Of a DNA stretch of 46,805 nucleotides, positions 6,001 to 12,000 are shown piece by piece. Source of the stretch: a virus (lineage: Duplodnaviria > Heunggongvirae > Uroviricota > Caudoviricetes); IMG/VR virus record IMGVR_UViG_2703718823_000005. One strand, written 5' to 3'. A program made the position numbers. How positions within the stretch are numbered: the stretch's first letter is position 1; every line of letters begins with the position of its first letter.

Positions 6001-9000
6001 TCTGACGCGGTAGTTGAAGCCCGCCACCCCACTAAGGTGGCAGTCAATACTAAAACGTCAGGAGTCATAATTATGGCTAATCAACTCATCCCCGTATTCA
6101 ACGGCACTATCGACAACGAAACAGCCCTACTCTGCAATGCCCGCGATCTGCATGCTTTTTTAGGCGTGAAAAAGGTGTTTGCGGCATGGATTACAAATCG
6201 CATTTCAGAATACGAATTCATTGAAAATCAAGACTATATTTTGCTTTCCAATTTGGGAAAGCAAACATCTGGTAGAGGCGGTCACAACCGCAAGGATTAC
6301 CACCTCACCCTCGACACAGCCAAAGAAACGGCGATGGTTGACGACTGCGTCCAATACTGACTATACTCCGCGCCGAGGCCTCGAAAACCTCCCAAAAGCG
6401 GATTAAACCAACCCCGTCAGTGTTGGATTTTTTATGCCTGTTATTCAGTGATAGCACAGTGTGCGGTCACATCCCCGATCAATGTCGGGAGGGCGACGAA
6501 TACAACACCCGCAAGGGGAATAAGTCCGCGGTATCTTTTGGGCCGTTTCGAGCCTCCCGGCACCACATTTTGTGGTGGCATTTCTCGAAAAAAGCCAAAG
6601 GAGGTCATCATGACCACTCAACTCATCCCTGTGTTTGAAGGTACAATCTCAAATGAACCTACGCTTCTGGTGAACGCGCGTGATTTGCATGGATTTTTAG
6701 AGGTAGGTAAAGATTTTTCTAACTGGATACGGGCCAAGCTAAACGAGTATGGATTCGTAGAAAATTTAGACTACATTCTATTTTCGCCAAATTTGGCGAA
6801 AACTCCAGGCCGCCGCCGCAAGGATTACCACCTCACCCTCGACACAGCCAAAGAGCTTGCGATGGTTGAACGTAACGAAAAAGGCCGCCAGATACGCCGA
6901 TACTTCATCGAGTGCGAAAAGAAACTTCGCAACATTCAGCCAGTACAAACTGAGCAGCAATTCACAGCAGAAGACATCATCCTGCTCTGCTACGTTCAAC
7001 TCTGGATGGAAAAAGCACAACAACTCAGTAAGCAGCTATACCCCGTCATGAGAGAACTGAATTCTGATTACTACGGGAAACTGTTTGATCTGGCCTACGA
7101 GACTCGTCATATAACCAACCGGACTCGCGACACATTGCTCCGCGAAGCAGCAAAACTTGATCCCGCCAACTATATGGTGCATAGGGCCAGAAGTATGCTA
7201 GCGCAACTAAGAGCAAGACAATTTGAATTCTGATACCAAAGGAGCTTCGGCTCCTTTTTTCATGCCTGAAGGAAAGGAAAATGGCAGATATCATCGACAA
7301 TGCCGCTGAAATCGAAGAATTGCAGCGCAATCTCTCCCTGCAAAAATACAAATCCGAAAGTAATGCCCCATCTGCTACTCATTGTTGCGAGTGTGGCGAT
7401 CCGATAGATGAGCGGCGACGCCAGGCTGTTCGCGGATGCCGAACTTGCGCCAGTTGCCAGCAGGATATTGAACTTATCAACAAACAGAGAGGTGTGAAGT
7501 GAGCATAGACACCACTATAACGATCGATACGGCCCTCAACACAGGTCTGGCGCTTCTTGGTTATTTTTACATTATGTTCTGCGCCGGGCGGTGGCTATCG
7601 CTGTTGTTACTGAAAAAATGGAATAAATGCCGTAAGCAGGATCAACGCCAGAAGGCAATGAATGCGTTTTCCGAAGCCTTCGGGATTGACAGCATGGAGC
7701 CAGGAGATCCAGCTCGCGTAATTAGCAGAGGTGACGTTGTAATTCTTGTATACCGGAGCGAAGAGAAAAATGAGCGAGATTAACTATCAGGTACTGCGTG
7801 AAAAGGCAGAAAAAGCAACGCGTGGTGAGTGGTCGCTCGAATATGGAGAGAACCGATTTGATGGTGATGATGCACTAATTCATCGCGAGGCTGCTGGATA
7901 TATTCCCATTTGCAGAATTGAAGGAGCACATCCTGAAAGCGGTTTCGATGAAGATTTCCAAATGGAACAGCAGGCCAATGCTGAATTCATCGCCGCAGCC
8001 AATCCGGCTACCGTGCTGGCACTGCTGGATGAACGGGAAAGAAACCAGCAATACATCAAACGCCGCGACCAGGAGAACGAGGATATTGCGCTTACGGTAG
8101 GGAAGCTGCGCGTTGAGCTTGAAACAGCAAAATCAAAACTCAACGAGCAGCGTGAATATTACGAGGGAGTAATCGCGGATGGAAGTAAGCGCATAGCAGA
8201 ACTGGAAAAACAATGCGCCGAATGGGAGCGAAAAGCATTAAGCAACTTTGAAGAGTGTGCTGCGATGGCTGAACGTATCGAAGAGATGCAGACAAAATCT
8301 GCACCAGATTCGTTTGGCATCATCGGTGAAAATATTCGAACACAGGACAATCGAATAAAGTCAGATCCCATGTTTTGTGTGTATCAAAAGCGCGAAATCG
8401 TTGTTGATGCTGATTATGACCATGACCGGATTGTCTGGGTTGACGAAGATGGCAATGAAGCCAATAAACGCCATAGTCGTCGTCTCGAGCTACTTCATGA
8501 AAACTTTCGAGAGCCACCAGAAAAATGGCGGCGCGTTGCTGTGAAAGATATTGATGAATTCGTTACCTGCTGTTTCACCGAACAGGGTTGTAAAGACTAC
8601 CTGGCAGTCAATGGTCACAATCTTCGCTTGCCATTTATATATGTAAAAAGCGGTTTCCGGAACGCTGAATATATCGGCATAAGAAACTGGCTTGCTGGCA
8701 TTCGCATCAAAGGAGAGTGATATGGCGTTAACACACCGCGAACTCTGTCAGATTGCGTACAAGTTCCTTAAGCGCAACGGGTTCAAGGTTTGTTTTCATG
8801 ACCGCTTTATAGCTGTAACCAGTACCGGAGAACAGCCAGATGCTATGGGATTCAGAAATTCAGCATCATGCCTGATAGAGGCGAAATGTTCTCGTGCTGA
8901 CTTGTTGGCAGATAGAAAAAAGCGTTTTCGTAAAAATCCGTCTCTTGGAATGGGCGACTGGCGATTCTTTATTAGTGAGCCGGGAATTATTTCAATTGAG

Positions 9001-12000
9001 GATTTACCACCTGGCTGGGGATTACTTCACGTTGTTAACGGAAGAGTACGGAAAGTACATGGATGGCCCAAGGGGAATTGCTGTTGGGGTAACCCTGAAG
9101 ATAAACCTTTTATTGGGAATAAGCAGGTTGAATGCGATTACATGTTATCTGCATTAAGGCGCATGGAGTTGAGAGGGCACCTTAATGAAATATATGACGG
9201 TGTAATTGTTAATAAGAAAGAAGGAAACGCGGCATGATCACTATTACCAAAGAGCGACTACTGACAATCAAGCAGTGGCGCGAAACATACGGACCTGGTA
9301 GCAACGTTGTACTGCCAGCAGAAGAAGCGGAAGAACTGGCACGAATTGCTCTGGCAGCGCTGGAAGCCGAGCCGATAGGTTTCCGTTGCAGGCGCAATGA
9401 TAACCTTGGTGATTGGAGTTACGTATATCATCGAGAGCCAGATGATTTTGAGCGCAAACATTTAGTGATAGAGGGCATTTACGCCGCCCCTCCAGCACCA
9501 GTAGTACCGGAAGAAAAACCAATGCCTAATCCTCTTAGCATGTACGCGGTTGATGCGGTTGCCGCTATTGCAGAGGTAAGAGGCTGGAATGCCTGCCGCG
9601 CCGCCATGCTTCAGTCCGGAAACTTTCGGGAAAACAAGAATTCGTCAACCAATAATTTTCGGGAAATCGCGGAAACGTCAACCAACTATCCGGTAATTCC
9701 TAGTGAGGTGTTGTCCGCAATCCAGAAGGTTGCCAAGATTCGTGCCGATTTCGATGATTTTGACGGTGACAGGCGAGGTATCGGTGATTGTCTGGATGAG
9801 GCTGAGCAAGAGCTTATCGTTACCATTAACAAATATGCCAGTCAGTTGGCAGCAGAACCGATAGCGACTAATGACGTTCGAGAGCAAACAGCCGTTCCGC
9901 CAGTTCCGGTAACTCCGGATGGTTGGATAAGCTGTAGTGATCGAATGCCAGAAATGGGAGAGCGACAATACTATGTGTTAGCAGCTGACTTTAAAAACAA
10001 CTACCCACCAAGCATCCCCAACACTCAGGTCGGCGTATATGGCGACTGGTTTAATGATGGCAATCCCACTTGGGATGACGGTGATGGCGAAGACCTGCAT
10101 CTCAAAGAAGTAACCCACTGGATGCCGCTACCAGAACCGCCGAAGGAGGTAAGCCAATGACCTAGCCTGAAGCATTTGCAATTGTAGTGGCTGCCATTTC
10201 GATCGCACTGATTGTTTTTGCGATTTGCCGCTGGGGGTAAAATAGTTCACCTGCATGGAGATTTGATGCCGGGGAATTGTGGGGGAGCATTCAAACCTCT
10301 CCCCTTCCCGGTTAAAGACTCCATTGCTTTGCGGTCAGAGAGATACATCAGCTTCATCAGCTTAATGAAACGCATAGATCCGCCATGCTTTTTCAGCAAA
10401 TACGCTGCCATTTGCGCAACTTTTTCTTCATTAAACATAAATCGGCTCTCTGTCTCACATGAAATACTCTTTCTGACTATATGTTAATAGCTCCGGTTAT
10501 TACAGGTTAATGTGTGTTTATTCCTTAATCAGCCCCGCACTTCCGTACGGGGCCATTTCTGTTAATCCACTCCCACTTTTTTGTTGTACTCGCGGTTAAA
10601 GCGATCCACGGCAACCTTCATATCCCGCTCTACCGATTTCACTATCGCCGCCTGCTGCGCCAGACTGAGAGAACTGTCGGCATAAATGGCATCACGCTGT
10701 TTACGCAAATCCTTCAGTCTCTTCCGGGTATCCTGCATAAGCCCGTTCATCGACAATTTTCCGTTGTTCTCGTCAATGAACGCCGTTCTTTCTGCACCGG
10801 TCAGACTCTTCAGCTCTGCGTGATACTGCGCAATCTCTGTCATCCGGTCGTACATCTTCTGCTGGTCTGCATACGGCATCACCTCCCCCGAAATTTTCCC
10901 CAGGAAGGGCACCTGCTGTTCCGGTATATCAATACCATTCAGCGATTTCACCGCCGCATCCGTGGTTTTGGAAATGAAGCGCCCTGTCCCTCCGGAGATA
11001 TAGTCAATCCAGAATTTCAGCGATTCCGGTGTGATATCCACCGCGCCGGGACGGTACTGGCTGCCACCTGAGAACGCATTCAGCCAGGATGCAAACGCCT
11101 TGTACGCTTCTGGCGTTGAACGTCTTCCCAGCTGGCTGTCAGGTTTTGGTGTACCAAACGGCATGTTCTCCTGGTAAATCTGCGCCCCCATGAAGTTTTC
11201 ATTCATGGCAAGGTTCGCAAACGGACGCAGAATGGTCGGCGCTGCATTTTTCAGCAATGCCCCGGACAGTGTTTCCGACGTTTCACTGCCCACAGGACTG
11301 AATGCCCCAAGCACACCACCAACAACATTACCGGCAGCACGTGAAGCGGTCAGGTCGCCCGCTGCCACCCCTTCGGCTGTGTGACCAAGCAGGAAGAAAA
11401 CGTTGTACCCGTAAGGCAGAGGAATACTCCAGTACTCTCCGGCCTTGCCCCCGAACACCGATTTCATAATGACGAGGTTACGCTCTTTCACATGAGACGG
11501 TACTTTGTCATACCAGTTAACCCCGTCATCATCCTCACCCGCCACGCTGCGGTTAAGCGAGCCAAGCAGATAACCCGCTCCCACAGCGGCAAGCGCGATT
11601 TTCTGCGGAACATTCAGATTCTTCCAGCGAAGGCGCTCCAGTAAAGGTCCCTCACCATTAAGATGTCCGAGCGTTCTCACCAGATTTGCCGTTCCCTGAA
11701 TACTGGCGTTGGCGAACATGTACAGCGAGTTCATCAGCGCCCCCTGCTCACCACGACGGTTAAAGTTCACCGTCATGTTTTTGGCAAGAGACGCCGCCTG
11801 CTGGCGTGACAAACCGGCATCACGGGCGTGTTTATAGGCAGAAAGACGCAGAGCGTTTTCAACCGCCCCGTTGGCATCCTCGACAAGGTTAAGGAACGAA
11901 TTCCATGCACCGATACTCTGGCCTTTCCATCCTCCCTTCGCCAGCGATACAAGGCGATCCATTTCCTTCTGCTGGCCTTCAAGGTCACCCATGTTAAACC

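Follow-up and report, generated by a model that had tools for sequence, protein, structure and literature searches.

The question raised by this locus is why five tightly packed genes lie at the very end of a prophage, next to the host chromosome, and whether any of them form a functional unit. The window analysed here, the 46,805 nucleotides of IMG/VR record IMGVR_UViG_2703718823_000005, enters the prophage at about position 5637, where the host gene ynfG is truncated; PGAP, on an identical STEC chromosome, lists the remnant as “4Fe-4S binding protein, missing C-terminus”. This junction bears out the att-proximal position given in the initial annotation. We conclude that 7281-10160 is an ordinary mosaic block of accessory early genes, belonging to a Shiga-toxin (Stx)-type prophage and already sequenced in a phage of this type. 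The explanation that we favour, with a probability of about 0.65 for all its parts taken together, is that the prophage is POCJ13-like and 933W-type (Sepvirinae), inserted in ynfG, that the block closes the early-left (pL) transcription unit at its distal end and corresponds, in this phage, to the exo-xis accessory genes of lambda, and that the genes have the roles proposed below.

Organisation of the locus

The five plus-strand ORFs, their domains, their tight junctions and the preceding terminator, as initially annotated, were all found (Table 1). Successive genes are joined by a GTGA overlap (7499-7502), a 14-nt overlap (7770-7783), a 1-nt spacer (8720/8722) and an ATGA overlap (9234-9237). 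The operon indeed converges on the virion-side genes, facing the 2806-aa minus-strand gene, and the GC skew is positive exactly across 7-10 kb, matching the expectation for plus-strand genes. Putative genes on the minus strand beneath the operon were rejected, as these are only short ORFs without family support.

Table 1. Features at the host-proximal end of the prophage
Feature	Position	Strand	Support or remarks
ynfG 5' remnant (4Fe-4S subunit)	5554..5637	+	cut by prophage insertion; sequence read and PGAP record
Strong hairpin, 17 bp	5710..5749	+	two copies of palindrome TGCAAAGCTTTGT; ~75 nt inside prophage end
sRNA-Xcc1-type RNA motif, copy 1	5949..6033	+	Rfam RF02221, 53.0 bits, equal to gathering score; leader of truncated antA
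AntA/AntB antirepressor gene, truncated	6073..6360	+	PF08346, 86.5 bits; partial gene in annotation
sRNA-Xcc1-type RNA motif, copy 2	6484..6569	+	Rfam RF02221, 74.5 bits (gathering score 53); leader of ant
Antirepressor Ant (AntA N-terminal and P22 AR C-terminal domains)	6610..7233	+	PF08346, 92.2 bits; PF10548, 32.3 bits
Intrinsic terminator between ant and the five-gene block	7238..7265	+	8-bp GC-rich stem, UUCG loop, U-run
TraR/lambda Orf73-type C4 zinc-finger protein, 73 aa	7281..7502	+	PF01258; phrog_54
DUF4752 protein, 94 aa	7499..7783	+	PF15944, 135.5 bits
Ea22-like protein	7770..8720	+	PF13935, 127.9 bits, residues 2-146 (conserved N-terminal segment and coiled coil)
Predicted stand-alone MmcB-like PD-(D/E)xK nuclease, 171 aa	8722..9237	+	motif E37...P39-D40...E53-x-K55
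Mosaic protein, 308 aa, C-terminal DUF551; “EaA protein” in some records	9234..10160	+	PF04448
63-aa ORF	10247..10438	-	phrog_3658 positions 1-62 of 91; phrog_1281 positions 4-48 of 195; annotated hypothetical
GC-rich hairpin	10532..10553		directly after stop of giant minus-strand gene
2806-aa polyvalent protein (LPD38/LPD5 domains)	10562..18982	-	first gene of virion-side arm

The terminator hairpin in front of the block (7238-7259) has a folding energy of -11.5 kcal/mol (z = -3.0). The strong hairpin close to the host junction (-21.9 kcal/mol, z = -4.95) resembles lambda tI/sib in its placement, an analogy of position. At the other end, the GC-rich hairpin folds at -20.5 kcal/mol on the minus strand (z = -6.0) and at -13.5 on the plus strand (z = -3.5) and may serve the convergent transcripts as a terminator. 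Two additional terminator candidates, at 5891-5911 and about 6398-6437, were discarded since their stability does not exceed that of shuffled sequence. A consensus scan for promoters and terminators returned no more sites than in shuffled sequence and missed the 7238-7259 terminator. Directly upstream of the five genes it gave no recognisable promoter; promoter-like sites came up before the ant genes, at 5835-5864 and 6338-6367.

The first three genes

The TraR/Orf73-type protein scores 35.3 bits against PF01258 (cut-off 24.9), contains Cys35/38/56/59 and the N-terminal DxxDxA motif (D3-I-I-D6-N-A8), and with its 73 aa has the length of the short TraR/Orf73 type. Over residues 1-63 it matches F TraR in the PDB (5w1s_M, E = 4e-4), while staying below the NCBIfam TIGR02419 cut-off (55.2 vs 59.7 bits). 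Going by the function of the family, for which the N-terminal motif matters (PMC9239242), it would bind in the secondary channel of RNA polymerase and shut down rRNA and ribosomal-protein promoters.

The DUF4752 product had been described as a small transmembrane protein. It does have one hydrophobic segment (residues 20-38), but the transmembrane character is marginal, with a 19-residue Kyte-Doolittle mean of 1.55 and an Arg inside the segment. The literature search found no mention of DUF4752. The Ea22-like protein would be a coiled-coil scaffold with a swapped C-terminal domain. Its C-terminal part matches phrog_3205 and, since a PDB sequence search (E <= 1) gave no match for the protein, this domain is, judged by sequence, not the solved C-terminal domain of lambda Ea22.

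A probable exo-xis block in a displaced position

In the exo-xis region of lambda and Stx phages (orf73, ea22), an Ea22-type gene likewise comes after a TraR/Orf73-type gene on the early-left strand, although the Ea22 C-terminal domain of lambda differs from the one found here. This TraR-Ea22-PDExK-DUF551 block is itself present in other E. coli prophages, where it sits between exo and int. In the present lineage, however, the block lies beyond int and attP instead of between exo and xis, with the antirepressor genes beside it and a terminator in front. The PD-(D/E)xK gene is absent from the exo-xis gene descriptions consulted, and a term search of a modelling study of the region (PMC8614690) gave no nuclease-related words.

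The arrangement has been sequenced before. Shigella phage POCJ13 (NC_025434 / KJ603229; genes gp74-gp78) is 99.7 % identical at the nucleotide level and Shigella phage 75/02 Stx 97.8 %, both with the order ant'-ant-TraR-DUF4752-Ea22-171 aa-308 aa convergent on the giant LPD gene. There is essentially no difference from these phages, except that the TraR ORF is unannotated in POCJ13 and that the element here is a prophage integrated in ynfG.

In the circular phage genome, N-antiterminated pL transcripts would run from exo through int, attP, ant and the terminator into TraR, DUF4752, Ea22, PD-ExK and DUF551; gene order, orientation and the terminator are what suggest this N-dependent read-through. 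In the integrated prophage the block would be largely silent because it is cut off from pL and lies behind terminators. A positional analogue is the lambda b region with ea47, ea31 and ea59, for which no sequence relationship is to be expected. These lambda genes are non-essential and lie beyond attP, so that pL transcripts reach them only in the non-integrated genome. The present locus shows that an exo-xis gene set can sit across attP, and integration there physically disconnects it from pL. Earlier studies of exo-xis genes dealt with how they influence the lysis-lysogeny decision and the induction of Stx prophages.

The initial annotation considered cargo such as superinfection exclusion. 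The location at the prophage/host junction, together with a small hydrophobic protein and a nuclease, also fits a cargo expressed in the lysogen, providing superinfection exclusion or anti-phage defence to the benefit of the host. Promoter-like sites do exist before the ant genes and could give some lysogen expression if the terminator leaks. However, a strong terminator and no promoter directly precede the block, the same genes are found elsewhere within the pL-driven exo-xis region, and a PADLOC-DB search with all six proteins (E <= 0.1) matched no family. In addition, homologues of TraR/Orf73 have a part in lytic development and retard the growth of the host (PMC9239242), a poor fit with constitutive expression. 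The cargo proposal is accordingly weak, and we regard it as highly improbable.

A putative stand-alone nuclease

Under the displaced exo-xis reading, the five genes would be independent modules shuffled by recombination rather than one machine. The 171-aa protein is predicted to fold into the alpha-beta-beta-beta-alpha-beta core that the PD-(D/E)xK superfamily requires, P39-D40 starting the strand 41-45 and E53-A-K55 ending the strand 48-54. D40 is invariant and E53 and K55 are at least 90 % conserved across 42 sequences, down to 33 % identity. Fold and conserved acidic and lysine residues thus uphold the earlier PD-(D/E)xK assignment, and the protein is probably an active nuclease from a large, unstudied phage family.

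Sequence comparisons went less far. The protein has no Pfam, NCBIfam or PADLOC match, and none to PF06319 (MmcB-like) at E <= 10; a distant relative (P0240) reaches 18.4 bits against PF06319, whose cut-off is 22. Among 25 close homologues scanned at E <= 10 only Hjc matches appeared, all sub-threshold. A PDB search with the single sequence gave nothing significant, and the family profile produced only a weak match to 3dnx (E = 0.54). It was the fold search with the predicted structure that settled the relationship, the closest likeness of the model being to the solved representative of the MmcB-like family. This is SPO1766 (PDB 3DNX), which we take to represent the MmcB/DUF1052 family. The 171-aa protein would accordingly be a metal-dependent DNA endonuclease of MmcB-like type.

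The locus thereby flags a very large, uncharacterised family of MmcB-like nucleases, with 3249 clusters at 50 % identity. The family occurs in virulent as well as temperate phages and lacks a Pfam model. It is under purifying selection as judged by codon-position identities, synonymous sites being too saturated for dN/dS. Set against the SOS-regulated Caulobacter PD-(D/E)xK endonuclease MmcB (PF06319) and SPO1766, the relative of MmcB with a known structure, the protein differs in being phage-encoded, in a conserved extra C-terminal helix (NKQxExxxxxSALRR) and in having no known link to crosslink repair. A role in resistance to mitomycin C and crosslinks is known only for Caulobacter MmcB (PMC9578287).

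The enzyme would most likely act alone, on intermediates of phage DNA replication, recombination or repair. An alternative, which we consider unlikely, is that it serves host takeover or counter-defence by breaking down the DNA of the host or of competitors at an early stage of infection. The nuclease would be early-expressed, restriction endonucleases and CRISPR ancillary nucleases are among its neighbours by fold, and DNA methyltransferase genes adjoin some homologues. A more specific proposal, speculative and quite unlikely in its full form, is that the protein is the founding member of a large clade of MmcB-like phage nucleases that process or repair damaged or branched phage DNA. DNA damage, by mitomycin C among others, induces Stx prophages; in them, such an enzyme would free the phage template of crosslinks or stalled-fork structures, and the yield of phage and toxin after SOS induction would rise. 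Should phage DNA come through this inducing damage with the help of the nuclease, the enzyme would have a bearing on the yield of both.

No conserved partnership with DUF551

The ATGA overlap between the PD-(D/E)xK and DUF551 genes had suggested a functional pair, which could be a two-component system with a nuclease effector and DUF551 as specificity or regulatory partner. Of 76 E. coli viral contigs that extend far enough, about 50 have DUF551 encoded by the next gene, and on further E. coli contigs the gene in this place has its 5' end in common with the 308-aa gene. However, the PD-(D/E)xK copies concerned are 98-100 % identical and represent a single lineage, so the E. coli adjacency counts only once. 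The neighbourhood sample, which consisted of 30 species-level loci and two virulent phages, tells otherwise: our own HMM detected DUF551 downstream in only 2 of the 30 species-representative loci, with homologues occurring singly and scattered, the pattern that the initial annotation had named as refuting the pair. A sibling prophage of the same phage type (L100) has the DUF551 gene deleted, phage PA5 has DUF551 without PD-(D/E)xK, and nuclease homologues lie within replication modules of virulent phages without DUF551 pairing. The downstream partner itself varies from 163 to 404 aa, with blocks swapped. One database protein (P0020) does fuse the two domains, but it is a single sequence from a single contig and lacks the nuclease's conserved C-terminal helix.

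By its sequence neighbourhoods, the nuclease is not a conserved partner of the adjoining DUF551 gene, and there is very little chance that the two form a dedicated system; the overlap would reflect generic operon packing, with no sign of partnership. Within E. coli there may be a lineage-specific interaction, since most contigs with a near-identical PD-(D/E)xK gene have a DUF551-type gene downstream.

The DUF551 protein would itself be a mosaic, put together from three or more exchangeable blocks, and block swaps are seen among its close homologues. PF04448 matches residues 230-304 (71.4 bits vs 22); in Stx phages, Ea22 variant V2 has DUF551 as its C-terminal module (PMC10834534). A PDB sequence search with the 308-aa protein returned nothing, and its model (mean pLDDT 36.4; available homologues too close) was assigned no fold. 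The identical protein occurs on hundreds of contigs.

Beyond the operon, the 63-aa minus-strand ORF is probably, from its partial family matches, a 5' fragment from a family of longer genes. Finally, PGAP is inconsistent in calling two intact genes pseudogenes, which is corrected here.

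Identity and boundaries of the element

The locus is a mosaic exo-xis-type block that has been sequenced already. Its host element is a publicly recorded short-tailed lambdoid prophage of the 933W type, since window positions 5900-10600 match the right end of the Shigella phage POCJ13 genome (Sepvirinae, Diegovirus) at 99.7 % identity, phage 75/02 Stx at 97.8 % and several human STEC chromosomes at 100 %. In POCJ13, gp74-gp77 together with an unannotated TraR ORF correspond to the five genes of the window. About 75 nt inward from the prophage end lies a very stable hairpin consisting of two copies of the palindrome TGCAAAGCTTTGT. 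In the circular phage this hairpin would be positioned just 3' of int/attP, as lambda tI/sib is; equally, it could represent protein-binding sites of attP.

Features of the prophage end, the five-gene block and its flanks (window positions)
Feature	Position	Strand	Remarks
E. coli ynfC-ynfF	1-5543		host DNA
ynfG	start 5554		interrupted by prophage at about 5637 (prophage/host junction)
Hairpin	5710-5753	+	17 bp, -21.9 kcal/mol, z = -4.95
Sigma70-like promoter, copy 1	5835-5864
RF02221 match 1	5949-6033	+	53.0 bits
Sigma70-like promoter, copy 2	6338-6367
RF02221 match 2	6484-6569	+	74.5 bits
Terminator before TraR	7238-7259		-11.5 kcal/mol, z = -3.0, then U-run
Five-gene block	7281-10160	+
TraR/DksA zinc finger		+	PF01258, 35.3 bits
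DUF4752		+	135.5 bits
Ead/Ea22		+	127.9 bits
171-aa PD-(D/E)xK ORF	8722-9237	+	no Pfam match
308-aa ORF	9234-10160	+	DUF551 at its end, 71.4 bits
33-nt tandem repeat	9621-9685	+	78 % identical; within 308-aa gene
63-aa ORF	10247-10438	-	between block and 2806-aa gene
GC-rich hairpin	10532-10553		between block and 2806-aa gene
2806-aa LPD-domain ORF	10562-18982	-	convergent with block

Gene content of the block

The initial annotation described an accessory operon following a terminator and converging with the late genes, and this reading is supported. The terminator and the convergent orientation were both confirmed, and all five plus-strand ORFs exist and bear the domains previously named; PHROG families span each of the five proteins end to end. 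In gene order, neighbours overlap by GTGA, overlap by 14 nt, lie 1 nt apart and overlap by ATGA. The second gene product does exist as a DUF4752 protein, its description as a transmembrane protein being only marginally justified (hydropathy maximum 1.55). The idea that the block is lysogen cargo gained no support; none of the block proteins matched a PADLOC model.

The 63-aa ORF downstream of the block aligns only with positions 1-62 of 91 in phrog_3658 and 4-48 of 195 in phrog_1281, has no match in Pfam and is probably a truncated remnant gene. The 2806-aa ORF carries an HExxH-like LAHEWFH stretch and has the annotation LPD38/LPD5 "large polyvalent protein"; in phages of this group it opens the virion-side arm.

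Position in the phage genome and expression

The block is an exo-xis accessory block relocated beyond int/attP, a reading based on gene order in POCJ13, in other E. coli contigs and in lambda. In the linear POCJ13 record, int is a minus-strand gene at the opposite end; after it come a DUF4222 gene, exo, recT, gam, kil, N and cI, and the exo-int interval holds no orf73/ea22-type gene. Of 80 viral contigs from E. coli whose PD-(D/E)xK gene is near-identical, only about 7 have the window-type arrangement. Others present, on a single strand, gam-recT-exo-TraR-Ea22-PDExK-DUF551 (contigs L045, L050 and L093) or Ea22-PDExK-DUF551-int (L053, L085, L099 and L110), and in the lambda pL operon orf73, a TraR homologue, is immediately 5' of ea22 (PMC9239242). 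The 933W-like phage PA5 shares the 5' skeleton of the window (ant, zinc finger, DUF4752) but differs in the variable 3' part, which lacks the PD-(D/E)xK gene.

In the circular genome, the early-left transcript would exit int and cross attP into ant'-ant-TraR-DUF4752-Ea22-PDExK-DUF551. Since a scan of 7000-7281 revealed no promoter-like site and a strong terminator precedes TraR, we infer that expression of the block depends on antiterminated read-through and that it is mostly silent when integrated.

The PD-(D/E)xK and DUF551 genes as a candidate pair

The last two genes had been proposed to form an uncharacterised functional pair. This is not supported by their co-occurrence: homologues occur singly and scattered, a pattern that the initial annotation had itself named as refuting the proposal. 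The comparison covered 34 species-representative genomic loci and 80 viral contigs. Of the species-level loci 30 were usable, and in only two of these does the gene directly 3' of PD-(D/E)xK encode DUF551; an independent DUF551 HMM found the same two, plus two further loci with DUF551 inside 600 bp. Other directly downstream genes include Dam, N6/N4 methylase, RusA, FtsK-gamma, Ea22 and TraC, and ATGA-type overlaps join PD-(D/E)xK to many unrelated downstream genes. Upstream neighbours are likewise mixed (Ea22 in 6/30, then NinB, methylases and dATP/dGTP pyrophosphohydrolase). In the E. coli contigs a DUF551-type gene is usual at the 3' side, the downstream gene encoding 163-404 aa; these contigs represent one lineage because their PD-(D/E)xK copies are 98-100 % identical. 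Close homologues of the 308-aa protein have exchanged entire blocks at residues 9-33, 50-82 and 95-117, differ by an insertion some 110 aa long and carry alternative DUF551 versions, and contig L100 has lost the DUF551 gene while retaining its Sepvirinae context. By tblastn, the nuclease family is present in 641 phage records; it adjoins DNA primase in virulent Ackermannviridae and lies between SNF2 helicase and beta clamp in Vibrio MAR10-like phages. This replication-module context favours a role of the family in DNA replication, recombination or repair.

The MmcB-like nuclease

The sole moderately new element is the 171-aa gene, a member of an MmcB-like phage nuclease family that is very large (3249 clusters at 50 % identity, E <= 0.001) and uncharacterised. 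The PD-(D/E)xK nuclease fold previously suggested is supported. The best named BFVD matches are phage proteins labelled "MmcB-like" or "MmcB family DNA repair", and in a profile-PDB match D...IECKSSRADFQAD of 3DNX aligns with the family motif. Among 42 sequences, down to 33 % identity, D40 is invariant and E37, E53 and K55 are >= 90 % conserved. Pfam PF06319 does not capture the protein. In Caulobacter, MmcB is a PD-(D/E)xK endonuclease under SOS control and gives protection from mitomycin C (PMC9578287).

In NZ_CP075852, an identical STEC chromosome (locus L001), PGAP calls the 171-aa gene "frameshifted" (L001 9223-9401, window 8722-8900) and splits the 308-aa ORF (L001 9735-10661) into three pseudogene pieces and a 71-aa CDS. 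Both ORFs are intact and annotated whole in RefSeq POCJ13 and hundreds of other records, the former being full-length relative to phrog_9263 and to 171-172-aa orthologues from Klebsiella, Lelliottia, Cronobacter, Serratia, Morganella and others; the pseudogene calls are probably an artefact of mosaic reference proteins. As a gauge of selection on the 171-aa gene, comparison with Enterobacter and Citrobacter orthologues gives an identity of 46-50 % at codon position 3 and 92 % at positions 1 and 2.

In rare database proteins (P0089, P0092, P0009) the PD-(D/E)xK domain is fused to a short N-terminus of Ea22 type, which fits gene-boundary shuffling in the region. The family is also found outside prophage early regions: one member adjoins TraC/TraG-type conjugation genes (L027, Pantoea sp. 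BAV 3049), and one is fused to a TniB-like ATPase domain (P0136, 428 aa). A further member is fused to dATP/dGTP pyrophosphohydrolase (P0213).

TraR, Ea22 and DUF551 proteins

The TraR protein carries the DxxDxA motif and four cysteines and aligns to F TraR in the PDB. Binding to RNA polymerase and inhibition of rRNA promoters are known for the six family members tested, F TraR and five phage-encoded homologues including lambda Orf73; Orf73 also slows growth of the host and increases burst size (PMC9239242). Stx-phage Ea22 proteins combine a common N-terminal coiled-coil part with unrelated C-terminal domains, DUF551 being among these portable modules (PMC10834534); YfdS, a DUF551 protein of E. 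coli, has a reported link with tolerance of oxidative stress (PMC4776307). The tandem repeat in the 308-aa gene encodes an internal peptide duplication (NFRENKNSSTN / NFREIAETSTN) in the middle block of this mosaic protein.

Putative leaders of the ant genes

Upstream of the block, the Rfam sRNA-Xcc1 motif (RF02221; gathering score 53) matches twice, in each case about 40 nt 5' of an antirepressor ORF (starting at 6073 and 6610). The duplicated module around each match repeats a sigma70-like promoter and the string TTTTTTATGCCTGTT, and the motif copies look like a conserved structured leader of the ant genes.
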